Below are positions 931-63,807 of a stretch of 64,000 nt of DNA, piece by piece. Position 1 is the first letter of the stretch; each line of letters starts with the position of its first letter. The stretch is from Mobula hypostoma (Eukaryota). The stretch covers positions 83,826,001 to 83,890,000 of the forward strand of contig NC_086108.1 of the NCBI RefSeq assembly GCF_963921235.1, written 5' to 3'. The notes under the pieces were generated by a model. It did no database searches, was not told the DNA's origin, and worked only from the letters and a program-made list of their open reading frames with translations. Position numbers and translations under genes: made by a program.

Positions 931-1674
931 CACTTTGTGCACTTTACACTAAGCTGGCTTCTTGTGGTGAGTTGCATTCATTTTTATCACACAGAAAGAT
1001 TAAGTTTAATGTATTTCAATCGAGAGCCAGAAAGCAGTATGTCATGCAAATTGTAGAGGAATGTTTGGACATTTAGCGAAAGGAAACAAAGGTGCCTTCC
1101 AAGTTGTCTTTAAAATACTTTATAGCTAATGTTGTATGCTGAAATGGAGCCAAGTTTCTAATATCAGTTAGCCTTGAGGGATAAATCAGACATGACGGAA
1201 TGGCAGAACAGACTCGATGGGCCAAATGGACTAATTCTGCTCCTATGCCTTCTGGTCTTCTGGTCTTAAAAGGTGAATAAAGGGATCAGAGATTGCACAG
1301 AGACAAACACAGAAAACATATTAAAGGAAAGTAGTATAGGAAAGAGAAGTACAATTACATTATGTTTTGTCTTCCTTACTATTGGGAACTATGTTTAGTG
1401 ATATAAATCTGATTCTTATGAATGTGGGTTTGGACCATTAACTTCAGCTTGGAGCATTGCTCTTATCCTTTAGTAGGATAACAGGGACCTCATAATCTAT
1501 TTCGTTATTACCTTGCACCTTATTGTCTAGCTGCACTGCATTTCCGTGTAAGTATCACACTGTAATAGTTTTCCCTCCTACCACCTAAATGCACTGTTGG
1601 AATTAATTGATATGGATGCAAGATAAGTTTTCACTACTTTGGACGTATGGCAATAATAAACCAAATTACCAATT

Positions 1675-1854
1675 CAACAGGAATTCTGCAGATGCTGGAA
1701 ATTCAAGCAACACACATCAAAGTTGCTGGTGAACGCAGCAGGCCACGCAGCATCTCTAGGAAGGGTCCTGACGAAGGGTCTCGGCCTGAAACGTCGACTG
1801 TACCTCTTCCTAGAGATGCTGCCTGGCCTGCTGCGTTCACCAGCAACTTTGATG
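1675..1854. mobile_element. Fold-back Penelope pLTR-derived mini-element with central hammerhead
   Basis: Inverted arms 1715-1763 and 1806-1854 match 48/49. 1765-1854 matches the Penelope 3' end 53199-53288 at 89/90. Flanking repeats caaattaccaatt (1662-1674) and caaattagcaatt (1855-1867). Confidence 0.9.
1764..1799 (+). ncRNA. Minimal type I hammerhead ribozyme
   Basis: CTGACGA (1768-1774), stem II agg...cct, GAAAC (1788-1792), GTC with predicted cleavage after 1795; stem I ggtc/gact. Confidence 0.85.
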
Positions 1855-2489
1855 CAAATTAGCAATTTATCAGTTTATTAATTCACCAGACTGAATAATG
1901 GCCCTGTACTTGGAAATGTACATTCATCTAAGTCCTGTCTCACTTAAAACATTGCTCAGTAGCTGAAAGGATGAAAGGAATAAATTCTACAGCCAATAAT
2001 AAGAGGACAGTGAATTTTAAAACAAATACAAATTTCCAAGCTTAGTAAGAAGGCTTTCAAAGATCGGGCTCTAAATATCCTCTTCATGCCATGGTTTGGA
2101 AAATCCCCCTGGAGCATCAGACAAGATTATATCATTGCCCAACACTTTTGTCAAACTTTCTTGCTGCAGTGTTATACCTCACCTCCAACTAACGTCCCCT
2201 GGCAGTGGTGATAAACTTCAGGGCCAATGGGCAACTGTTCAATCTACAATCCAGAATCAAGTGTACCCAAACCTCATTAGCTCTTGATGCTTATGTTTGT
2301 AAATCCTTAAAGGTTAAGCCATTGTCATCTTGTTCACTTTAAGATTGTGGGCCCTACATACAATAGCTTCCAAGACCAGCCATCTTAACCAGCTCATCCC
2401 TACTGACCCCCGCTGTTCTCCCACAATTAAGGCTCATGGAGAAAAAGCCTCTCATATATTAGGAGACACTTCTTGGTGAAAGCCTTTAG

Positions 2490-6821: not shown

Positions 6822-7015
6822 TGAGAGCGCGCTGTGGGCGAGACAGAGAGAGAGAGTCAGCGCACCCGTGAGTGCCGCGGGAGAGCCAGGGAGAGAGCAG
6901 GCAAAGATTTTACCCTTTGAGTGTGTGTCTCTCTCTCTGTGTGCGGGTCCTGGGCAGCCAGATAGCCGGGAATTCACCCTTCGCCTGTGGTTTTAAGCAT
7001 CTTGCTCCGGGGAGA

Positions 7016-7846
7016 ATGTCGGCAGTGATGCTGCCCGAGTCTCTCAACCTTTCGAGCTGGGAAGAAGTTAATGGCACCTCGGCTAATGCCTCTGCAGTGT
7101 CTTTGAACATCAGGTCCAGCCAGGTTATCACCCCGGCCAGCATGTTCGCCGTCGGGGTGGTGGGGAACCTCATCGCCATCGTGGTGCTGTGCGTCTCCAA
7201 GAAGGAGCAGAAGGAAAGCACCTTCTACACCCTGGTGTGCGGACTGGCCGTCACCGACCTGCTGGGCACCTGCTGCACCAGCCCGCTGGTGATCGCCACC
7301 TACTTGACCCAGCAGTGGCCCGGAGGACAACCGCTCTGTCACTTCTTCTCCTTCTCCATGCTCTTCTTCGGCTCGGCCGGCATGACAATCCTGTGCACCA
7401 TGTCCATCGAACGCTACCTGGCCATCAACCACGCCTTCTTCTACAGCCAGTACATCGACAAGGGGATGGCCAGGATAGCTCTGATGGGAGCCTACTTGCT
7501 CAACCTGGTCTTCTGCATCCTGCCCTTCTTCGGTCTGGGGAGGAACGCCAGGCATTTCCCCGGCACCTGGTGCTTCCTGGACTGGCGAGCCAACAGCACG
7601 GTGTGCGCCACCTATACCTACATGTACGGGGGCTTCAGCGCTTTGCTGATCCTGGTCACAGTTCTGTGCAACCTGTGCGTCTGCGCCACCCTCATCAGCA
7701 TGAGGAAGAAGTCCGTGGGGACGGCCACGGGAAGCTCGAGGGGTCGCCGCTTCCCCAACCTAGCCGCGTCCGCCGCCGAGATGCAGATGTTCTGGCTGCT
7801 GGTTTTCATGACCATCGTCTTCCTGGTCTGTTCCATCCCTCTGGTG
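7016..7846 (+). CDS. ptger4c: Prostaglandin E2 receptor EP4-like (EP4c paralog), coding exon 1 (TM1-TM6)
   Basis: EP4 signatures GVVGNLIAIVVL, KKEQKESTFYTLVCGLAVTDLLGT, ERYLAINH, PGTWCF, CSIPLV. Phase-0 donor GTG|GTAAGC at 7846/7847, the conserved prostanoid-receptor intron. HFFSFSMLFFGSAGM resembles fish ptger4c rather than canonical PTGER4 (from memory). Confidence 0.92.
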
Positions 7847-8204
7847 GTAAGCAAGGCAGGGCGAGCAAGGGAAATAAAAGGCGGCAAGGAACAGTGGAGA
7901 GCTTCTGCCTGACTACGAATGGAAAAAGCTTTCCACTGCCTTGAGTACGAAGGGGTACCGGGCAGATTTAGAAGTGCGAACTTCGTTGACTTTCTAGCCA
8001 GACAAAAAGGAACAAACTTTTCATTCAGGTTTTATTTCTGCATTTAAAGTCATTTATCCCGTGTCACTTTTCGCTTAAAAATTAATTTAAGACATTTTCA
8101 AATTGTCTTTTTTCACAGTTTTTAATCTGTTAAGTATTGGTCCTTCGGTATGATGGGACTGATCTTAAGTAGACATCAGTATGGTGGGACCGATCTTAAA
8201 TGGG

Positions 8205-16449: not shown

Positions 16450-17715
16450 AAACCTACCGACACCCACGGCTATCTTGACTATACCTCATACCACCCTGTC
16501 GCCTGTTAAAATGCAATTCTCTTTCTCATTTGCTTCATCTGCGCTGCATCTGTTCCCCGGGTAGCTTTCCTTGCCAGGACATCCTCCTCCTTCAAAGAAC
16601 AGGGCTTTTCATCCTTCACCTTTGGAGCTGCCCTCACCCATATCTCCTCCATTTCCTGGCCATCCATTCTCATCCCATCTTCCCGTTGCCTGAACAGGGA
16701 TAGAGTTCCTCTTGACCTCACCTACCACACCTTGAGCGTCCACATCTGGCATATCATTTTCCACAATTTTTGCCATTTTCAATGGGGCCCTACATCGAAC
16801 ACATTTTTACCTCTCCCACCTCCATCTTCCACAGGGATCTCTCCCTCCATGATTCCCTTGTCCATTTGCCCTGCTCCATTTATCTCCCTCCGGCCACTTA
16901 TCCCTACAAGTGGAAGAAGTGCAACACCTGCCCATTCACCTCCTCCCTCAGCTCCATTTGGAACCTCAAACAATACTTCCAGGTGAGGCATTACTTCACC
17001 TGCAATCTGTTGGGGTCACCTACTGTATTGTGTGCTCATGATGCGGCCTCCCCTACTTTGGTGACACCCGATGAAGGTTGAGGGTCCCCTTTGTCGAGTA
17101 CCTTTGATCCATATGCAAAAAGCAGGATTTCCTGGTGGACAACCATTTTAATTCCGATCTCCATCCCATTCCGACATGTCGGCCTTCTCTACTGCAATGA
17201 TGAGGCCACTTTCAGGTTAGAGGAACAACACCTCATATTCCATCTGGGTGGCCTCCAACCTGATGGCATGAACATCAATTTCTCCAACTTCTGGTCATTT
17301 TCCCTCATCTCCCTTCCCTCTTCTCCAGTTCCCCATTCTGCCCTCCCTCTTACCTCGTTTCTTCTCTTCGTCTATCTATCATCTCCCCCAGGTGCCCCTT
17401 CCCCTGCCCTTTTTTCCATGGTCCACATTCCTCTCCTACCAGATTCCTGCTTCTCCGGCCCTATTCCTCCTATCATCCCCTGGCTTCTTTCTTCATCCCC
17501 TCTCTCCCACCCACCAGGCTTCACCTATCACCTTCTAGCTTCTATTCCTTGCCCTCTCCCACCTTCTTATGCTGGCTTCTTCACCCTTCCTTTCCAGCCC
17601 AAAATATCAGCTGTTTATTCATTTTCATAGATGCTTCCGGACCTGCTGAGTTCCTCCAGCATTTTGTGTGTGTGTTGCTCTGGATTTCCAACATCTACAG
17701 AATCTCCTGTGTTTA
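16450..17715 (+). mobile_element. Decayed Penelope (Neptune) fragment with pLTR; hammerhead core deleted
   Basis: KWKKCNTCPF and LEEQHLIFHLGGLQPDGMNINFSNF are homologous to 51601..52917; pyrimidine-rich 3'UTR and pLTR tail. Confidence 0.85.
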
Positions 17716-28140: not shown

Positions 28141-31100
28141 CATAGTTTGATAATGTATTTTGAACTTTATATTTTGAATTGTAATACTTTTATTAATAGT
28201 AAAGCCTTGAATAAATGACAGGACATCCATTTTCATTTAGGTCCATAAATATTGTTATAATTCATTAATGATGATCTCTGCTCAAAATTATCATGACGTG
28301 CAAGAGAATTTTGTACAAGAATATCCATTTGGGTGCATGTTCTCAAAAACGACTTTGTCCTGCGTGACTTCGTTCTAGACCAGCCCTGGTTGAGACTTTG
28401 AAGTTATGCAGAACAAAGGAGAGCTTTCAATGCCAAGCAACCATCCAGCACCCTTTTACACAAACCCCATTCTAAAGCCATTTTTATTCTCCTTGTTTTT
28501 TTTTCCCATCACCTCCCTTCAGATTTTGCCAGTCACCAACACAGGTAAGAATAGCTTATTAACCTCCTATTCTGGAGTGTGGGAGGGAACCAGTGTACCA
28601 AGGTTCAATGCCATCTGGAGTTTTCAAGTTTCTCCTGTGACCTTGTGGCTTTCCTCTGACTGTTTCCTCCCAAATCCCAAATGTTGACAGGTTGGTAAGT
28701 TGCAGGTCTAATCTGGGGTATGGCAGTATTCTGTTCCTGAGAACTGTCCATAATACGAAGCACTAGAACTTGGGTCACTGGAGATGTAAGGAAGCAGATC
28801 TCCTTGTTTGTCCCCTAGTAGAGACTGGCTTGAAGGGCCAGGAACTGGGCAATTACAGACGTGAGGTCTAGACGTGCATTAGGGGTGATATTAACTGTTT
28901 CACCGAATAACCAGCAAGATCTAACCCATTATTTTCTGTTGTGAAGAAGAAACTGGGGAGAAGTGTAATGGGGGGGGGGGGAATCTGATTGAATAAATAT
29001 CATGTGATCATTAGAACCTGGAATTTAAATTTGTGGTGTGTCCAGAGAGACTTGTGTCCATTCTGGGATAGCTCGCTCACCGACCCCTCAGCTCTCACCT
29101 GTGGCCCCCCCCATACGTTGCTTTGACAGGTGGGCTGAACCAGGTGCAGGTAGCCAATGGCCTCATACCCTCGTGAGATAGGGACATGCTTGTCCTAGCC
29201 TGCAAAGTCGGCTCCGGTGGACTGGTTGGATGAGATCTGCAGTGAGATCCAGCAGGTAGGTAGGTGGTACTGCACTGCTCCATGGAGAATGAAGAGACAG
29301 AAGACATCATAGCATCCACTGTAACCACGTAAGACCCCAGTTTGTGATGCTTGTTTGTATCACTGGATCTGAATTTCTAAGGTTGAGGGAGTGGAACTGG
29401 CCCGGTGCAATGGCTTTTCCACTTTTTGAAAACTCCCACATGGGTTTCCTGTTATTGTCGGACTTGATTGACAACCATTCACATTTTTCATATTTAACAT
29501 TTTTACAGTCTCATAATTTGCTTCATGAAGTAGGTCACCCAGCCTGATCTCCAGGGGGATTGAGTTCAAAGACTTGCCCAGACTGTGCATGAGAGTATTC
29601 ATGTTTTATGGACTCTGACTTTTGCTTCAGAGGCCCCATATTTGGAAATTTGATGCTACAGAGCTATGCTGTTACTGCCAGCCAGCAAGAAACCCTCTGA
29701 GACTGCTAGAGAAATATGAATACATACTGTCTTCTTCCATTCTAGCATTTGGGGACATGCTCAGCACATGTTGCCGGAAATCAGATGCAAATCTGTCCTC
29801 TTGATCCTTCCCATGAGAAAATTGCATGGTTAACACAAGAAAAAGCCATAATTTGTAAATGAGGTTGTTGTGAAAGCACTTGCCTGGAATTGACTAAAAC
29901 TGCTGGAAACGGCAGGTGGTAGAAAAACACCTGTAAAACAAAGGACTGGTTTGTTTTGGGGGTTTACAAAGTTTTATCTCTGGAAGATGGTTTTTGCATC
30001 CAACCCAGTTTGAACTGATCTGTCTATGAAAGGCTTAAGTTAATGTGAAATGATCACTGTCAAAATCATGTGATTTTTGTTCTGTAATCACAGTCATTTT
30101 ATCCCCGCTGGCTTTAAAAACTTTCGAATGCCAAGTAGGAGGTTGTTCTGTTGCAGTTTCAGCACAATGAAAACACTTGCACTGCAATGATCACTTTCCA
30201 GTGATGTTTGACTTTTCAATGATTGGGGGGAACCCATAGCAGGCAGGGAGGGCTCTTGGCCCAAAACGACGAATGTTTGTTCCCAGACTTGCTGAGTTCC
30301 TCAAGCATTGTATGTGTGTTGCTTGCATTTGTAAACCCTCTCTCACAATCGTTTCAGTACATCTTAAAGTGCTTATCAGAAATGAAGTATTTCTGATGTA
30401 CAGTCCCAATTCAATGGATGAAGAAAATGAACCGAACTATGACAAACAGCCATGTGACCTTGACCTAATGATTTCCTGATGTTGATTAATTTTCTTTAAA
30501 CTTTTCATTCCGCTGCACTTGTCTCAAGAGCCCTTTTTCAGGATTTGTGCCTGTTCTCCACGAGCCTCACTCTGTCCTATCAATGAGGTGGTTTATTGAA
30601 GCTACTTTAAAGCAAATGCTTGGAACTTTTACACAAAGTCTTTTGTGGCAGCTTTTTTCTGGTGATTCTCACCCTTACCTTGGCATTGTTTTGTTTTCCA
30701 TAGAGTACATGCAGTTTCAATTTTTTTAAACCTGATCCCTTCACTGACCCCTGTGCACCTCACATCACCATTGCCACCTGAAATCACATTTCTCACCTAT
30801 GACTCCCAGTGCTCAATTATTCCCATTGATGAGCTGTATGAACATGATTTATATTGGGTAAAAGGTTATTCACATGGCTAACATTCCCGCCAGCACTAAT
30901 CAGAATCAGGCTCGCATGGTTTCATGGAATCTGGAAACTCGTGGGTTTGGTACCCAAGTTATGTGTCACATTGAGGCAGCCAAGCTACATATATATTCAA
31001 TTAGCACAGAGAAAAACAAACTCTGCACTGAAAAATACATAGATAACATTTGTATATTAAATATGCACGAAGTGATTAAATGTCAATAAAATCAGCGTGG

Positions 31101-32209
31101 GGAAATCCAACTGTTCGGTTATCCTGTTTGCCTTCACTAGAGGGCGCCAAAGTATTAAAAGTCCCACACAAGTTGCACAAAGAGCGTCAAACTATACATC
31201 CAATGATAAATTTTAAGAAGCATCGCCTAAAAATGTTAAATATTTTTCACCTCATACAGTGAAAGTAGTAATCATAGACAGCTATGTAGCACAGTTGATT
31301 TGTACTTGTAGAAGAAACTTTTTTGAAAAGGAATTGGTAAGCAAGGTGTTAAAAGAGTGAGTAGGTTTGCAAAGTAGAACGAAAATGATAGCACTAAATA
31401 CATTCGAACATTACACCTTGTAGTACCTTCAAAGTGGGGGGGGGGGTGAGATTTAAAAAAAAATAGCAAGATGAGTTTTAACCAGTATTAACTCATTAAT
31501 TTGCCTGATATTTATCTGGAGGCAGGCAAGGGGAAGAAGAATCTGAGCTCACTGCACCTGCTTTGTCGAGGCTAATACAGATAACCTTATTACACATGTA
31601 CCAAGGTACAGTGAGCAACTTTGCATGCCATCCACACAGATCATTTCACTACAACAGTGCATTGAGTTACTACAAGGGAGAGCAATAAGAGATGGCAGAA
31701 TAATGTGTTACAGTTATAGAGAAAGTGCAGTTGGACAAGAAGGTACAAGAAAATGGCAAGGTAGATTGTTCCAGTGAAGAATCTATTTAACCCATTGATT
31801 TGAATATTAGACTGTGTAGACCCAGTTTATACTGTACTTCATACTTTTGCACTCATTTTTAACATGCCAAAAATTTATTTGACCAGATGTTAGATTAGTT
31901 GTCAGAACTTTTATGGGTGTCAGGTTTCATAAAAATACCAGTAGGTTCATTAATTTGATTAACACATAAACATACTATTTAAACAGCTTTATGGCTCCAT
32001 GAGGTTCTTTGTTTAGATGTTACCCATGGGTGCCAAATTTATTTTTATATTGTTGACAACTACATCAAAGCGCACATTTAATTCTCAGTTGACAGGCTGA
32101 TACAGTTTTGGTTTTTTATTGCCTCATACACAGAGGTACAGTGAAAAAATTGTGCCATTCATGCAGATCACAGTGCATTGAGCTAGAATAAGCTCAGACA
32201 ATAACAAAG

Positions 32210-32386
32210 CAACAATCACAACATGCTGGAGGAACTCAGCGGACCAGGCAGCATCCGTGGAAACAATCAGTCAACGTTTCGGGCCGGAACTCTTCAATCA
32301 TTTCCACGGATGCTACCCGACCTGCTGAGCTCCTCCAGCGTGTTGTGAGTGTTGCTTTGACCCCAGCATCTGCAGGGTATTTTGTG
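32210..32386. mobile_element. Fold-back pLTR mini-element with perfect 15-bp TSD
   Basis: TSD cagacaataacaaag at 32195-32209 and 32387-32401. Arms 32206-32263 and 32301-32358 match about 50/58. Central minus-strand degenerate hammerhead tgattgaagagttccggcccGAAACGTTgactg. Confidence 0.88.
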
Positions 32387-34845: not shown

Positions 34846-35435
34846 TGTGCTTTCTGCAGGGATCGCTCTCTCCGTAAATCCCTTGTCCATTCATCCCTCC
34901 ACACTGATCAACCTCCTGGCACTTAGCCATGCAAGCAGATAAAAAGAAAAAGTGCTACACCTTCCCATTCACCACCTCCCTCGCCACCATTCAGGGCAGA
35001 AACCAGTCTTTCCAGGTTGGGCAACACTTCACCTGTGAGTCTGTCAGGGTCGCCTAAACGCAAGGAATTTAAATCCAAATCAACACACACAAACTGCTGG
35101 AGGAACTCAGCAGTCTGGCAGCATTCACAAACAATGAACAGTATATATCTCAGGCTGAGACCCTTCTTCAGGACTGGAATGGAAGAGGGAGGATGCAGAA
35201 TATAAAGGTGGGGGGAAGAGGAAAAAGCATATCTGGAAGGTGACAGGTGAAGCCAGGTGGGTGGGAAAGGTAAAAGGCTGGACAGGAAGGAATCTGATAG
35301 GGTAGGAGAATGGACCATAGGAAAAGGGGCACCAGAAGGAAGTGATAGGCAATTGAGAAGAAGTAAGAGGCCAGAGTGGGAAATAGAAGAAGTGGGGAGG
35401 TAGGAAACTTTTTTACCAGAAGGAGAAATTGATAA

Positions 35436-40552: not shown

Positions 40553-40588
40553 ACTCCTGATGAATGGTCTCTGCCTGAAACGTCGGCT
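40553..40588 (+). ncRNA. Hammerhead with intact core but weakened stems
   Basis: CTGATGA (40557-40563) ... GAAAC GTC (40577-40584) in a Penelope pLTR. Confidence 0.6.
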
Positions 40589-41031
40589 CTTTATTCCTCT
40601 CCATAGACGCTGCCTGGCCCGCTGAGCAGTTTCACCTCTGGCGTTTTGTGTGTGTTGCTATGGATATCTTTGCCAGGCCCTAGCAACTGTTTCTCTGGTT
40701 TCCCACAAGGCCCTGGGATACGATTGGTCAAGTGCTGGAGATTTATCCACAGTTATTCACTTAGGACCACCAGCACCTCTTTCGGTAATGTGGATGTGTT
40801 TCAAGAGTTCATTATTCTTTCCCCTGAATTCCTTAGCTTCCATGACCTTCTCCGCAGTAAATACAAATGAGGTAATTTAAAACCTTGCTCATCTCCTTTG
40901 GCTTCACATATAGATGATCCTATTGATCCTGATAAAGGTACTATTTTCTCCTTGGTTGTCCTTTTGCTGTTGATATATTTATAGAATCTCATGGATTTGT
41001 CTCTCCTCTTATCTGGCAAGGCTATTTTGTA

Positions 41032-41202
41032 AACAAGAGAATATCTGCAGATGCTGGAAATCAAAGTAATTTACACAAAATGCTGGAGGAGGTCAGCAGG
41101 CCAGTGGGAATCAGTAAACAGTCGAAATTTCGGGCCACATAATGCAAAACTCTTCATCAGGCCTGGCCTACTGAGTTCCTCCAGCATTTTCTGTGTATTA
41201 CT
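41032..41202. mobile_element. Fold-back pLTR mini-element with perfect 14-bp TSD
   Basis: TSD aaggctattttgta at 41018-41031 and 41203-41216. Minus-strand CTGATGA...GAAAT TTC gactg; inverted arm gcctggcctactgagttcctccagcatttt. Confidence 0.88.
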
Positions 41203-41285
41203 AAGGCTATTTTGTATCCTCTCTTTACCCTCCTGATTTCCCTCTCAGAGCCTTGCACTCAAGGGAATTACTTGATCAAAATATG

Positions 41286-41392
41286 AGTTCTGATGAAGGG
41301 TTTCAGCCGGAAACGTCCACCGTTAACTCTTTTTCACAGATGCCGCCTGGCCTGCTGAGTCCCTCCAGCATTTTGTTTGTGTTGCTCAGATT
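41286..41392 (+). mobile_element. Solo pLTR with intact hammerhead core
   Basis: CTGATGA (41290-41296), agggtttcagccg, GAAACGTC (41310-41317); stem I mutated. Confidence 0.75.
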
Positions 41393-42058: not shown

Positions 42059-42200
42059 CACAGATTTCTGCAGATGCTGGGAAACCATAGCAACACACAC
42101 AAAATGCTGATGAAGGGTCTCACCCCAAACATCAGCTGTTTATTCTTTTACATAGATGCTGCCTGCCTGCTGAGTTCCTCCGGCATTCTGCGTGTCTGGC
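42059..42200. mobile_element. Fold-back pLTR mini-element
   Basis: Reverse pLTR arm fused through 'ctg' directly to CTGATGA (42107-42113); G12 position mutated. Probable TSD tttattttctgaa (42046-42058) / tttatcttctgaa (42214-42226). Confidence 0.75.
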
Positions 42201-42690
42201 AATGTGTTTAGTCTTTATCTTCTGAAGGCTGGTTCTGATTTGGATCTGCGGTATTCTATCCCTAACACCCTGATCTGCCATGCTCTCAAAAAGAAACAGA
42301 CTGGCCCTGAACTCTGTTTCACTTTGGAAAGAGATGTGAGTGTTAAATATGAGCTGTTGCATTTGATAGCCGTTATTGGTAGGCAAGAGATGGACATGTA
42401 TTTTACAATGTCTGGAATAGTGGAGCTTATCAGTTAAACCCCCAGGAAGATATACAAGTGGAAGTAAACATCCTCTGCTATACAAGCAGAGGTCTAAAGA
42501 ACAAAAGGAGGAAATAATGGTGAACAGTTATCACTTACAGGTTAGTCCCTAGCTGGGACTTTTTTGGAAAAATTGGTGAGGGGGAATTTGAATATCTAAA
42601 ACTATAATACATATGTCTACATACTTGAACATAGAATTGTACTGGACAGTTCAGATACTTAATTTCACATAGTTGTGCTGACCCATACCC

Positions 42691-50440: not shown

Positions 50441-52917
50441 ATCGCCTCCACAATTAGTCTGGCTGCAGCTTCTCCACAAACTGCCACCGTCTCCCCTTCC
50501 CCCACCACCACTCTGCAATCCCGTCTCTCTCAGATCCCACTGTCAGCTCCTGGGTCCTCAGAGGCTCCACCTTCCTCTCACCCCAACCCTCCCCTCTCCA
50601 CTGACACACCCAGCCTCCCCCCTCCCCCCTCCCCCTCTGATCCCAGCTCTCATCCGTGCCGGGTCTTTACCATCCCCTCCGACCTTCAACTGTCGGAGGC
50701 AGAACGCTCTGTTCTCAGTAAGGGCCTCACGTTTGTCCCCCTTCGCCCACACCTCAGCGAGTTCCGTGTTCACCATGACGCGGAACTGTTCTTCCGTCGT
50801 CTCCGTCTCCGAGCCTACTTCTTCGGCAAGGACTCTTCCACCCCCACCGATGACCCCTTCTCCCGTCTTCAACCCTCCTCCTCTTCATGGACACCCCGCT
50901 CTGGTCTTCTGCCTGCTCTGGATCTCTTTATCGCTAACTGCCGGCGGGACATCAACCGTCTCGACTTCACCGCACCTTGTTCCCATTCCAACCTCACTCC
51001 TTCGGAACGCTCTGCTCGCCACTCCCTCCGCACTAATCCTAACCTTATTATTAAACCCGCTGATAAAGGGGGTGCTGTTGTAGTCTGGCGTACTGACCTC
51101 TGCCTTGCCGAGGCACAGCGACAACTCGCGGATACCTCCTCTTATTTACCCCTCGATAGTGACCCCACTAAGGAGCACCAGGCCATTGTCTCCCACACCA
51201 TCACCAACTTTATCCGCTCAGGGGATCTCCCATCCACTGCTACCAACCTTATAGTTCCCACACCTCGCACTTCCCGTTTCTACCTCCTACCCAAGATCCA
51301 CAAACCTGCCTGTCCTGGCAGACCTATTGTCTCAGCTTGCTCCTGCCCCACCGAACTCGTTTCTGCATACCTCGACACGGTTTTATCCCCCCTTGTTCAA
51401 TCCCTTCCGACCTATGTTCGTGACACTTCTCACGCTCTTAAACTTTTCGATGATTCTAAGTTCCCTGGCCCGCACCGCTTCATTTTCACCATGGATGTCC
51501 AGTCCCTATATACTTCCATCCCCCATCAGGAAGGTCTCAAAGCTCTCCGCTTCTTTTTGGATTCCAGACCTAATCAGTTCCCCTCTACCAAGTCCGTCTA
51601 GTGGAATTAGTCCTTACTCTTAATAATTTCTCCTTTGGCTCCTCCCACTTCCTCCAAACTAAAGGTGTAGCTATGGGCACCCGCATGGGTCCGAGCTATG
51701 CCTGCCTTTTTGCCGGCTTTGTGGAACAATCTATGTTCCGAACCTATTCTGGTATCTGTCCCCCACTTTTCCTTCGCTACATCGACGACTGCATTGGCGC
51801 TGTTTCCTGCATACATACTGAGCGCGTTGACTTTATTAACTTTGCCTCCAACTTTCACCCTGCCCTCAAGTTTACCTGGTCCATTTCCGACACCTCCCTC
51901 CCCTTTCTAGATCTTTCTGTCTATATCTCTGGAGACAGCTTATCTACTGATGTCTACTATAATAAGCCTACTGACTCTCACAGCTATCTGGACTATTCCT
52001 CTTCTCACCCTGTCTCTTGCAAAAATGCCATCCCCTTCTCGCAATTCCTCCGTCTCTGCCGTATCTGCTCTCAGGATGAGGCTTCTCATTCCAGGACGAG
52101 GGAGATATCCTCCTTTTTTTTTAAAGAAAGGGGCTTCCCTTCCTCCACCATCAACTCTGCTCTCAAACGCATCTCCCCCATTTCACGCACATCTGCTCTC
52201 AGTCCATCCTCCCGCCACACCACTAGGAATAGGGTTCCCCTGGTCCTCACCTACCACCCCACCAGCCTTCAGGTCCAACATATTATTCTCCGTAAATTCC
52301 GCCACCTCCAACAGGATCCCACCACTAAGCACATCTTTCCCTCCCCCCGCCCCCCTGCTTTCCACAGGGATCGCTCCCTACGCGACTCCCTTGTCCATTC
52401 ATCCCCCCCCCCCCCATCCCTTCCCACCGATCTCCCTCCTGGCACTTATCCTTGTAAGCGGAACAAGTGCTACACATGCCCTTACACTTCCTCCCTTACC
52501 ACCATTCAGGGCCCCAGACAGTCCTTCCAGGTGAGGCGACACTTCACCTGTGAGTCGGCTGGGGTGATATACTGCGTCTGGTGCTCCCGATGTGGCCTTC
52601 TATATATTGGCGAGACCCGACGCATACTGGGAGATCGTTTTGCTGAACACCTACGCTCTGTCCGTCAGAGAAAGCAGGATCTCCCAGTGGCCACACATTT
52701 TAATTCCATATCCCATTCCCATTCTGACATGTCTATCCACGGCCTCCTCTACTGTAAAGATGAAGCCACACTCAGGTTGGAGGAACAACACCTTATATTC
52801 CGTCTGGGATATTCCGTCTGGGATATTCCGTCTATTCCGTCTGGGATATTCCGTCTATTCCGTCTGGGTAGCCTCCAACCTGATGGCATGAACATTGACT
52901 TCTCTAACTTCCGCTAA
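50441..52917 (+). pseudogene. Penelope RT/GIY-YIG ORF broken by one frameshift near 51590
   Basis: ORFs 50327..51601 and 51601..52917 are consecutive halves of one protein. Confidence 0.9.
52795..52868 (+). repeat. Tandem microduplication (atattccgtctggg / attccgtct units), net +60 nt
   Basis: Read directly; the native C-terminus GSLQPDGMNIDFSNFR* stays in frame. Confidence 0.9.
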
Positions 52918-53197
52918 TGCCCCACCTCCCCCTCGTATCTCATCCGTTATTTGTATACACACATTCTTTCTCTCACTCGCCTTTTTCTCCCTCTGTCCCT
53001 CTGACTATACCCCTTGCCCATCGTCCGCGTTCTCCCCCTTTTCCTTCTCCCCAGACCTCCTGTCCCATGATCCTCTCATATCCCCTTTGCCAATCACCTG
53101 TCCAGCTCTTGGCTCCATCCCTCCCCCTCCTGTCTTCTCCTACCATTTCGGACCTCCCCTCCCACTTTTAGATCTCTTACTAGCTCTTCCTTCAGTT

Positions 53198-53233
53198 AGT
53201 CCTGACGAAGGGTCTCGGCCTGAAACGTCGACT
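53198..53233 (+). ncRNA. Minimal type I hammerhead ribozyme in Penelope pLTR
   Basis: agtc-CTGACGA (53202-53208)-agggtctcggcct-GAAAC-GTC (cleavage after 53229)-gact; palindromic ACGT stem III. Confidence 0.88.
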
Positions 53234-53309
53234 GTACCTCTTCCTAGAGATGCTGCCTGGCCTGCTGCGTTCACCAGCATCTTTGATGTGTGTTGCCACC
53301 ATCCTGTGG

Positions 53310-53965
53310 GTTTTCACTCGCTGATTTTAATTGCTGTGTTTGCCAGTATGCGTACACTAACACACCGATTACACCGGCCGGCAGACGAGGTAAATACCTA
53401 CCTTGGGTTTGACTGACACTCGCTCACGTGGTTTAAATATTGGTGTCGAATCAAGTGGATATCGGAACTGATCAGGCGAAATAGTCTCCGCAAGTAAGTA
53501 AAACACCTACTAGTAGTAACTGCGTTCGAAAGTTTGCCGAACTCCAGGTGTGTGCAGTTTCGCCCCTGAGATGATAGGATAAATTTGTAATCAACTTTTC
53601 CGTCTCGGTGGGCCCAATAATCTTGAGGTTCCAATCGCTAAATACATAAGGGAGATTGCCCTGGCTTTCCTGTTCTTCCCCACTGAGCCTCCAAAAATGG
53701 ATCCGTCCACGTACCTCAAGGTACAGTAAGTGCAATTGCGGATCACACTCAATTGCGTATTTATTTTAAGTATGCATCTGTCCCGGGGGCGTGTAACCAG
53801 CACTTTAACCAGATTTAATTTTAATGTTAATGCAAATAAGATCCCCGAGTAGCAAAACTATTTGAAAATAAATTGCAGAAATTATAACGGTTCACCTAAA
53901 TCTTCGAATCCGAGATTAACCGTCATCTTAAAATAGCTTCGCCTCCAACTGCAAAATAAATCCGA
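53310..53965. promoter_or_regulatory. CpG-undepleted segment (candidate non-methylated island)
   Basis: About 30 CpGs (manual count) in ~650 bp of moderate GC, versus strong depletion in 55-62 kb. Confidence 0.4.
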
Positions 53966-56900
53966 GAATCTTTGTGACTTCTATCACAAGCTTGTAATTT
54001 AGAGGATTATAAACCATTCCTTAAATTCTATTACCTTTTAAATTTTGCAAGAATAATCCACTAGGTGGTGAATTTGCCTTTTGGCCGCAGCTACAGAAGT
54101 CAAATAACCAGTTTAGTCAACATCAGGTTTATTATTACCGACATGCGTTGGGAAATATGTTTTGCAGCAGCAGTATATTGCAATACATAAAAGAAAATTA
54201 CTAGAAGTCACAATAAGAAATATATTTAAAAAGCAGTGCAAAAAGTCAGGTAGTCATGGTTTTTGTTTACTAAGATGGCGCGCAGAATAGCAACCCTTTT
54301 TCGTGCAGCTCCTTGATTTGAAACGTTGGAACAATTTTGCTCCTAAAACCAGAACTGTAAATATAAATCCCACTTAAGTGTATAGACAAGGACCTCAATC
54401 ACCAAGGCATAGGAAGGCTAGAGACCACATACTAATAACTGGAGTTTAGCATAAATAAATAGTTGATTTGTGTGGCCACAGAGGCTGTTTCTTTGCTATA
54501 TGATTCCACAACCCAGATGTACCGTAATTCAGTTTTGCACAAATTACATTGTCCTTCCAATGTGGAACCATGTTGGAATTGAGAACCAAGTTCAAAGTAA
54601 TCTAAGCTCTGTGATCCATTGACTCAGTGGGACGGAGAGCAAAAGATATCTGTGCAGTCTGTATTTGGGTATTTTGGAGTAAATTGTTTTTCTCAGATCC
54701 CTCTTTCTGATGAATATCCAACTATTATTTCTTTTATCAGTTTTTTTCAAACCAAAGTCAAAGCGATCTTGGGTACTTGAAATCTAATAACAAATGACCT
54801 GTTTGCATTGCTGATGTAAACAGTTAACAATCCTTTCAGATTTGACACATTATTACATCTTGAATCCAGTTGGTGGTACTGCAGGGGAGTGAATGGAGGG
54901 GGGGTGCCTAAAATCCCAATTAGATATTGTTACTTAACATGATGTTCCATGGTCCAATTTCTGGGTGGGTAGAAGAGCTGCAGTGTTGTTTCCTATGCTG
55001 TGGATGATCACTGTGCATGTTGCCTATCAGTTGGCATTGTTTGAAGGCAAAATTTTTAAATTCATGGCTGAGTAAGGAGAGAATAGCTTGGGATCAAGCA
55101 TAAGACTCGTCTGTAGTAGCTATGACACTGAAGCAATTCCAGTGATGGTAGTTAATGTCCCACAGGAAAAGAACAAATCAGGTGGTAGATGTAAATTGAC
55201 ATTGTTTCTTTGCGTTTTTCCGATGATGCTTTGGAATTAAGGCTTGTGGAATCTGCCCACAGATTTTAAGATGTATTTTCTGTTTATGGCTACACTGTTA
55301 CTGAATCAGCTTCAGATTAATCTTGGAAGCCCATCCATAAGAGATCTTCCACAGGAGAATTCCTCTTTATATTCTCCCGCACAGAAATATGGTAAATTCT
55401 ATCAAATTTGGACTAGGGAATAAATAGGGAGGCAGGATCTGCATTTTGGGAAGGTTCCCAAGGTAAATGTTGTAGAAGCTGGCTTTTTCTTTGGTAAAAT
55501 ATTTTCTGACAAAATGTTCTGTCAGCTTTTTATTGGAAATTTGATTTAGCAATACAGGAGTCCAACATATCTGGGATCTGCACACCTCCTTTCCAATGCT
55601 TGGATTTCCAGCATCTGCAAATTTTCTCTCGTTTGTGATTGGATCACATCTCCTTTTCCAAATGCTCAGCAGGTTCATTTGAATGTGCTTACACACTTGT
55701 TTATTTTCTCCCCAGGAAGTCTGTGCTAAACACAGTTTTAAGGACCCAGTCCAGAAATCTTGCCAGACAGCCCTTAGGAATCACAATCTCCGGATTTATT
55801 TGTAAAGTCTGGTGAAGGAGAAGGGCAATGAGCAATTTAGAGAAGTGTCTTAGTCGGAAGGGGAAAAGTTAATTGGGAAGAGGGGGCAGCTGCTGGAGTG
55901 AGTAAGAAGATGTGAGGAGGCGAAGGCAATTTAAGCCAAAAAAAACTTTGTATCCTGTCAAAGTCTCAGTTTAAAGGAAAGGGTAGCCAAGGTAATGGGT
56001 GGGGTGAATGATAAGAAAAATGGATTGGCGAAGGCCAGTTATTCTTGAGGTGCACAGTGGAGATGGGATGCATCTTGGGTTGCTGGTAGGAGTGGGAGGA
56101 AATTGCATAAGAACTGCCTATATTCTTCTAATGCTCTTTACACACAAAGAGTCAGGGGACTGAAAATGGTAAATGCTCTGGCCTTTGATTTTAAAAGAAC
56201 AATCAAAGACAAGTCCAGCCACCACAGGCTGTTCAAAAACTCTTCAGTCTCCAAAGGTTTTCTTGTCATGCAGTGAATGAGATTTTAAACGAATCATTTC
56301 ACCTTGTGAAGCAGAAATAATGAGAATAGTCAAACTCTTTGCATAGTATCACAAAATTTATTTGAAATATCTTAAAATACTGCTTTGGAAAAGCTTTGTT
56401 TTACAGAGGTTTAGTGTTGACATTCTGCATGATTGAGATTAAATTACATTATTTTTAAAAAATGCTGTCAGAGACATGGCCCCACATTTCACTTCAAATA
56501 AATAGGATCTTATATCTGAAAAAGGATGAGGTTGATAAAAAATAAATAAATAACTTAACTATAATAAATATTTTGCCTAATAAGTTTCTTTAATGCAAAG
56601 AGATGCATAGCATCCAACATGGCTGGCTTGTGCTCAAGACAACTATTAGAATTGTTTGTACACGTGAGCAAATTTATTGGTGGTCTTTTGGCTTAATGAT
56701 TCTCACAGGCCATTCACTTCATTGGAGCCTTTTTAAAACAGACCCTTTTCTGTTGAGAGTGAATTCATATGCATTTGGAAGTCTTAGAGATGATATGAGC
56801 TTCAGTATTGGATTCAACTGTTAACCTGTTTCATTTGTACACATTCCCATCGAAGGGGCAAAGATCAAATCTCGTACCAGACACGGCATTTGAGCATGAA

Positions 56901-59312: not shown

Positions 59313-59446
59313 AAAAACATAAGAGATTCTGCAGATGCTGCAAATCCGGAGCTATAGATGCAAAATGCTGGAGGAACTCAGCAGGTTAGGCAGCATCTAG
59401 GGAGAGGAATAAACAGTCAATGTTTTGGGCTGAGACCCTTCAATAG
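59313..59446 (-). mobile_element. Solo Penelope pLTR with degenerate hammerhead; a decayed V-SINE follows to ~59720
   Basis: Reverse complement reads ctattgaagggtctcagcccaaaacattgactg...gatgctgcctaacctgctgagttcctccagca. Confidence 0.75.
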
Positions 59447-62895: not shown

Positions 62896-63344
62896 TCATC
62901 CCAAACACTTGCATTCAACTGCAGAAAAGTTCATGAGTGTGTGCCATTTGTTTTTCACGTCTAGAAAGGTTACATCATCGTACTTGATTGGTCGACAGCA
63001 TGGGCTACGGGTCACCTTCTCATGCTTCCTTAAACGGATCTCTTTATTCTTGAGCAGATTGGACAAGGTAAGGTCATAATTTGTCCGGGAGCGTGCACAG
63101 CTTCCACTGCAGTATTTGAAGAGTACGACCTCTTCTGATTCATACCCAAGTCCTAGACTTCTAACTTTGACTGTCTGGCTGTTAATCTGACATCCTCTGT
63201 TTGATCGGTTTGATTCTCTCTGCTTGTTTCTGCGTGAACCACTTGAAGGCATTGTACCTTGAAGCGAAGCCCCGGGCGAACGCTGATGACGGTTTTGTAG
63301 ATCCTCAGCAGGTGCTCCCGGTCTGTCTGAAGTTGGAGTTGCAT
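62896..63344 (-). CDS. ARTN: Artemin-like GDNF-family ligand, last coding exon
   Basis: Acceptor tgtgcag|AT (phase 1) at 63345/63344; furin site RHQR|SP; seven-Cys knot with LGLG, FKYCSGSC, CCRP. ARTN-like traits: SQxxxVRxLGLG, 7-residue CCRP-to-FxD spacing, DVxxxWxT, C-terminal CxCLG. Upstream exons were not found in the window. Confidence 0.85.
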
Positions 63345-63807
63345 CTGCACAAGATGGAACATCAAGTTAATACGAAACCTTAGCTTCCGTTCTTTTGATA
63401 GTATGGTTCCCAGACGAGCTTGTTTAGATGATTCAATGCTTTGCAACAAACCAGTACAAAGGACAAAAATAGAAAACGATTCTCTTCATAGCAAAAATCG
63501 TGGGAGTCTCACTACAAGTCAACAAAATAAAAACATTTAAGCATATTACAAATGGACTGTTTTAAACATTAATAACCCTACTGGAGACATATTTGTCTTG
63601 CAGCATGATAAATCTTGAATTTGACATTTTTCCCTGTTTCCTTAATTTTTGTTACCTCTTTCTCATTGTCTTCACAATAATTTCTGCATAGCTGAGAGGA
63701 GAGGTGCCTAAAATCTTTTTGGTCTCTGGACTATAGCCAAATGAATGCTTTCCTCTGATTTTAACCAAATCCGATGCTAGATGCAGGTTCCCCTGAAGTT
63801 TCTGATT

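Follow-up and report, generated by a model that had tools for sequence, protein, structure and literature searches.

A short hairpin at the left of the window, by which we mean the whole 64,000-nucleotide stretch of Mobula hypostoma DNA that was analysed (contig NC_086108.1, positions 83,826,001 to 83,890,000), holds a complete hammerhead ribozyme motif in its loop. This raises the question of whether the hairpin is a mobile non-coding unit that propagates itself, as a preliminary description had proposed, or a product of insertion by the Penelope-like element whose 3′ end it resembles.

Boundaries and composition of the insertion

Recomputing the hairpin reproduced the geometry described previously, with inverted arms at 1715–1763 and 1806–1854 that are complementary at 48 of 49 positions around a 42-nt loop (1764–1805); the best inverted pair here scores 46, with the runner-up at 8. 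The claimed descent from a Penelope pLTR also holds, as 1765–1854 and the parent 3′ end at 53199–53288 are identical at 89 of 90 positions, and so does the flanking direct repeat, in which 1662–1674 and 1855–1867 agree at 12 of 13. A contig of a related organism (organism C) has the empty site, passing from 1661 directly to 1855 (flanks of 110 and 455 letters), which makes the repeat a true target-site duplication of 13 nt with one mismatch, and the insertion itself 1675–1854. These 180 bases consist of two outward-facing, head-to-head copies of the Penelope pLTR end. The left arm is in truth 89 nt long (1675–1763), longer than the 49-nt arm described earlier, because 1675–1714 is an antisense pLTR 'tail' that is missing from the right arm. 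When distance from the tail end is counted in a natural locus, L048, and written d, the left arm spans d9–d97, the right arm d138–d49 and the hammerhead d139–d104, with the cut between d108 and d107. The features are as follows.

1662–1674, no strand: target-site duplication, left copy, 13 nt (12/13 match to 1855–1867; empty site in organism C)
1675–1763, minus strand: inverted, 5′-truncated Penelope pLTR end, 89 nt, d9–d97, which stops short of the hammerhead (sequence comparison)
1675–1714, minus strand: one-sided 40-nt pLTR 'tail', left arm only (sequence comparison; the tail as a concept is taken from PMC3846280 and PMC8557442)
1760–1767, plus strand: arm-to-arm junction, 8 nt (sequence; same junction in 12 places, on different haplotypes)
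1764–1799, plus strand: minimal type I hammerhead motif (sequence against the consensus in PMC4209133)
1765–1854, plus strand: sense 5′-truncated pLTR end, 90 nt, d138–d49, without tail (89/90 to 53199–53288)
1855–1867, no strand: target-site duplication, right copy (sequence; empty site in organism C)
50487–53296, plus strand: Penelope-like element of the same family as the hairpin, 5′-truncated and frameshifted, with RT region, C-terminal GIY-YIG and a 3′ pLTR without tail (ORFs; GIY-YIG match; 5′ boundary by copy comparison)
53198–53233, plus strand: the same minimal hammerhead, here within its native pLTR (sequence comparison)

The junction at 1760–1767 is a repeat of 1773–1780, and its nucleotide 1764 substitutes for an A of the parent. 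It probably arose by joining at microhomology, with a few templated nucleotides inserted: the two ends would have annealed at GAAG, been extended by 4 templated nucleotides and re-annealed at GTC.

Canonical endonuclease-positive Penelope-like units, according to PMC3846280 and PMC8557442, contain an inverted 5′-truncated copy, a one-sided tail of 30–40 bp and a target duplication. The hairpin has each of these, with an inverted 5′-truncated neighbour copy (1675–1763 antisense, 1765–1854 sense), a tail at one end only (1675–1714) and a target-site duplication; its pLTR parentage, by the 89/90 match to 53199–53288, is from an element with RT and, at its C terminus, GIY-YIG. Like canonical units, its family has partial tandems elsewhere. 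Unlike them, the hairpin's copies are cut to ~90 nt, which is a matter of degree and leaves no ORF between the two. Judged by sequence comparison, the layout follows the pattern described for Penelope insertions, at its minimum size, and is ordinary; on the same basis, the hammerhead in one arm is the family's usual motif.

Within the parent ORF (50487–53296), the C-terminal GIY-YIG match has E = 7e-4, below the Pfam cut-off, and Pfam returned no RT match; the translation does show DKG and YIDD motifs. The 3′ end of this ORF carries short local tandem duplications (52802–52870, ~48 extra nt) that other copies do not have. Just after the Penelope 3′ end lies a CpG-rich, promoter-like stretch (53300–53800) with possible splice donors on both strands and no Pfam match. 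The window also holds older Penelope ends of related subfamilies, 70–85% alike, at 17627–17714, 30288–30330, 32207–32375, 35078–35221, 40555–40624, 41031–41386, 42063–42204, 55597–55635 and 59315–59441, two of which retain the hammerhead core (at 40557 and 41290) and, like young copies, end in a truncation near d137–139. A weak Rfam match to MIR2118_2 at 32223–32341 proved to be a Penelope fold-back and not a microRNA.

Copies across the genome and the question of a mini-family

The 3.5-Gb genome contains 23,512 exact matches to one 43-mer taken from the tail arm. Our sample was the 100 that come first along contig C1, chosen without regard to junction; 11 copies ran past the reference and were dropped, leaving 89, which divide into 45 two-armed copies and 44 that are one-armed or unresolved. 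Sampled arm lengths range from ~70 to more than 900 nt, and target duplications accompany 40 of the 45 two-armed copies (11–19 nt) and 25 of the 44 others (8–17 nt). Junctions between two arms are diverse and include overlaps, blunt joins and short insertions. The hammerhead lies whole in the loop in two of the 45, on both arms in 20, on neither in nine and in between in 14. A gapped short-hairpin pattern gave 2,055 matches; in many of the 100 listed, the junction falls inside the ribozyme core. Tandem pLTR–ORF copies occur in the family as well, and at 4 of 30 loci the tail continues into shared ORF-start sequence. At two places on contig C1 (G000:C1:46047318-46048224 and 52912327-52912650), tail ends recur on one strand with ~440-nt and 293-nt spacing; these may be pLTRs arrayed head to tail, as in retrozymes.

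A non-coding hairpin family that propagated itself in the manner of retrozymes or MITEs, with the ribozyme in its loop, would show a common junction, common ends and a common haplotype in many copies. The hairpin's junction is indeed not unique in the genome, with three matches to an exact 31-mer and 12 to a looser pattern, and one copy, L231, carries the same rare left-arm variant as the hairpin. L231, however, has a different tail allele and a different stem II allele, and belongs to another subfamily. Only 12 same-junction copies stand against 23,512 tail arms, and they are not one lineage: they carry three alleles at d90, have differing outer ends, separate target duplications and no common flanks, and bear the tail on the left arm in seven cases and on the ribozyme (right) arm in five. 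Since these copies differ in subfamily, ends and tail side, the junction recurs and does not define a mini-family.

Comparison with non-LTR retrozymes points the same way. These elements (bioRxiv 10.64898/2026.07.22.740005; see also PMC7229834) are, like the hairpin, non-coding, hammerhead-bearing and derived from Penelope pLTRs, but they are built of head-to-tail tandem units with at least two hammerheads, whereas the hairpin is a single head-to-head unit that has one hammerhead motif, on its plus strand, and forms no tandem array. The proposal of a self-propagating mobile unit is not supported, given the wide variation of the junctions and the mixed origin of the 12 same-junction copies; such a hairpin family is largely refuted, and we regard it as barely conceivable. 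It had also been suggested that unique junctions in every genomic copy would leave the hairpins as one-off truncation products. In substance this is what was observed, although the junction here is recurrent and not strictly unique. The hairpin is almost certainly a one-off Penelope insertion.

Hammerhead motif, age and gene setting

The complete minimal hammerhead reported for the loop is present by sequence, with CUGACGA, GAAAC-GUC and the stem I strands GGUC/GACU. Its parts are stem I (1764–1767/1796–1799), the core (1768–1774), an extra A, stem II (GGGU/GCCU, 1776–1779/1784–1787) and GAAA (1788–1791), and the predicted cut, read off the sequence, falls after C1795. Stem III is palindromic and has no loop, and can therefore form only between two molecules. 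The hairpin minus strand has no hammerhead motif, and an Rfam scan of the window yielded no hammerhead (two matches at E ≤ 1, neither of them a hammerhead), as expected of a minimal motif.

Metazoan hammerheads of Penelope-like elements, as described in PMC4209133, share with the hairpin the CUGANGA and GAAA core, one extra nucleotide before stem II (between 9 and 10.1), a short stem I, a loop-less stem III that is palindromic at 15.2–16.2, and the possibility of forming stems I and II. The hairpin departs from that consensus in having a 4-bp stem II, an outer G–U pair in stem I that was made by the junction, and a G1776–U1787 wobble where the consensus has G10.1–C11.1. This wobble is the family majority, found in 73 of 90 sampled arms, with the C allele in 16 of 90. 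The same source describes single scattered motifs and opposite-strand pairs 100–700 bp apart.

It had been proposed that the long stem would lock stem I in place. The folding model does not support this: nearest-neighbour predictions, made for RNA free of Mg2+, dimers and protein, give a stem I pairing of 0.00–0.01 in the hairpin, with stem II at 0.86–0.96 and the catalytic core paired with itself (UGACG/CGUCG), and a hammerhead-shaped monomer costs 7.5 kcal/mol. For the parent pLTR, the modelled stem I pairing is 0.72–0.77 if the RNA begins at 53194, and 0.00 with longer upstream sequence. The hairpin hammerhead is thus predicted by the model to be inactive as a monomer. Dimeric cleavage of minimal Penelope-like hammerheads was reportedly described in a 2017 study.

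The insertion differs from the majority alleles of the family at one position in 179 nt (left arm 1/89, right arm 0/90), in line with the recent origin claimed for it. It is young also in being absent from organism C, whose flanks are ~6–8% different from the window. A contig of related organism B crosses the right junction with 28 letters within the element, under the 31-letter threshold, and suggests that the insertion is common to that organism.

Another possibility is that the hairpin was inert at its origin and later gained a role, as a cis-acting ribozyme or a source of dsRNA or small RNA. A 346-aa open frame at 6872–7909 on the plus strand, with a 7tm_1 domain and with prostaglandin E2 receptor EP4 as its nearest relative (E = 4e-86, PDB sequences), places a PTGER4-like coding frame ~5 kb downstream of the hairpin, on the same strand as the hammerhead. 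The ribozyme core is intact, and a 49-bp stem would be predicted to form if the hairpin were transcribed. Youth alone would predict an intact core, however, and the absence of the hairpin from organism C speaks against a role acquired over time. The predicted fold also buries the core. Furthermore, cleavage of single minimal hammerheads was undetectable in PMC4209133, and the Anolis hammerhead was cleaved solely with the element's protein, and was dispensable for insertion, in PMC11167929. We consider a later-gained role, for example for the PTGER4-like gene, very improbable. A Pfam scan over the window plus the 20 kb that precede it, which took in 150 of 217 unmasked frames and would miss short exons, found no host exon upstream of the hairpin. 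Elsewhere, a TGF-beta family exon with artemin as its nearest relative (E = 2e-28) lies at 62899–63366 on the minus strand, and pieces of an LTR-retroelement integrase, RNase H and a Tc1-like transposase lie upstream of the window (L222:7973-8629, L223:221-571, L223:5429-6040).

The one-sided tail and the route of insertion

How a single insertion could acquire two opposed arms and one tail can be judged from the wider set of copies. All 45 two-armed copies have a second arm without a tail. Exactly one tail is likewise present in all 40 two-armed copies picked by junction and not by tail (28/28, a set of 30 loci minus one duplicate and one one-armed copy, and 12/12), and it may sit on either arm (12 versus 16 and 5 versus 7). 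The exception to this rule is L017 (G000:C66:43204379-43204551), one of 30 top matches, which has tails on both arms, carrying different subfamily alleles. Additionally, the arm without the tail extends inward beyond the tail arm by more than 5 nt in 18 of the 45 copies, and in the hairpin, so that neither arm contains the other.

These observations bear on a different route to the same one-off Penelope insertion, in which the second arm arises by fold-back or self-priming and resolution of the intermediate by the endonuclease leaves the tail on one side. A target-primed cDNA that simply folds back cannot put the tail on the shorter-reaching arm, and fold-back of this kind sits poorly with the occurrence of one junction with the tail on either arm and with insertions whose arms come from different subfamilies. 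The arms of one insertion do usually agree at subfamily sites (246/281, compared with 60% between loci), as a fold-back copy would also give; 14 of the 45 junctions are near-symmetrical (within 5 nt), and many junctions are formed at self-complementary stretches, hammerhead stem I being one example (57 of the 100 listed, by hand count). Fold-back on an antisense template was proposed for rotifer Penelopes in PMC3846280, and formation of the tail by resolution is suggested in PMC8557442; a possible variant in line with both papers has a two-tailed hairpin intermediate that is then cut asymmetrically. On balance we consider the fold-back route unlikely.

Arms of one insertion differ in 9 of 149 subfamily-site cells, where mutation would be expected to give 2.4–3.7 (P = 0.0007–0.013), and this excess indicates that some insertions had two templates, a signal carried by few loci, as only L062 differs at two sites. 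The converse idea, of one RNA molecule for both arms, drew an uninformative comparison, with rare non-CpG variants held in common in 1/61 cases within and 12/2424 between loci. Together, the tail rule, the finding that neither arm contains the other and the arm differences favour two cDNAs, one primed from each of the opposite strands of the target.

The inner ends of the arms are concentrated: d130–149 (window equivalents ~53188–53207) holds 58 of 134, a density of 2.9 per position and five to eight times that of the neighbouring stretches (0.34 and 0.6). This pile-up coincides with the hammerhead's 5′ edge, not with its cut. A TCAGTT stretch at the pile-up resembles an initiator, and for Drosophila Penelope PMC8557442 reports a start site inside the pLTR. 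Splicing was considered as a source of the d138 ends and rejected, since four one-armed d138 copies enter the target duplication directly, with 0–2 extra letters, which leaves no upstream exon.

Arms that start exactly at the hammerhead cut site number 235, compared with 64 and 41 one base to either side. Among the 100 listed, hand counting gives 57 that begin CAG and 13 that begin CGA, both kinds being joins between arms at GACT or GAC microhomology. A fossil signal of in vivo cleavage was therefore not retained, because the remainder scales to ~80, a modest excess at most, and a cleaved template joined through stem I would look alike. The recurrent junction that uses hammerhead stem I (GACT) as microhomology (L141–L170; ~57% of the 235, as judged from the 100 listed) has given rise to many separate insertions whose loop contains a hammerhead in full.

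As a full explanation of the hairpin, it is quite probable that a single insertion event took place in which the enzyme primed synthesis on the two nicked strands of the target and microhomology joined the two short cDNAs that resulted; double priming, taken separately as the route of this insertion, we hold to be reasonably likely. The element's enzyme would prime reverse transcription from both nicked strands, one strand starting at the tail-end site and the other at an inner site ~35–40 nt away. Most cDNAs would halt just 5′ of the hammerhead, perhaps by run-off at the RNA 5′ end, and two such short, 5′-truncated cDNAs would then join by microhomology. The ribozyme would stand in the loop only because the left cDNA halted early, at d97, while the right one reached d138.

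This double-priming scheme has a biochemical counterpart in Poseidon of Anolis carolinensis. According to PMC11167929, its purified enzyme both cuts the two strands and extends them, synthesis beginning at two sites with the tail between them, and the protein is modelled as dimeric. Poseidon and the hairpin's family are alike in that the tail is delimited by two end points separated by ~35–40 nt, with the tail end ~120 nt beyond the point where stem II starts. That work was done in vitro and concerns neither inverted insertions nor start-site coupling. Weighing against the scheme, Frangieh et al. found the start site in vitro to be alike between strands, although coupling lay outside their tests.

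The Anolis enzyme needs RNA to ORF +172 while starting at +111–118 (PMC11167929), so that a template requires ~55 nt past the start sites. Neither strand of the hairpin has the sequence found after the tail in the family's tandem copies, and the strand that has the tail in sense lacks the hammerhead. By analogy with Anolis, the missing family sequence predicts that the copy was dead on arrival, unable to move again.

The hairpin locus belongs to a population of tens of thousands of Penelope ends in this genome, and its ribozyme-in-loop shape is a minority outcome (2/45) of variable truncation. More tentatively, these stump insertions may be a fossil record of coupled double priming by a dimeric enzyme, which would have one subunit at each of the start sites bracketing the tail and, where it begins within the 5′ pLTR, would run off at the RNA 5′ end just upstream of the hammerhead. 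We found no proposal of coupled double priming for Penelope inversions in the literature searched, which consisted mostly of papers outside subscription. The counts bear on how Penelope-like elements make inverted, one-tailed insertions, a process called undefined in PMC8557442, and, if the suggestion is true, coupled priming and run-off would together account for a tail on one side only, for arms inverted head to head and for the lone hammerheads found genome-wide.
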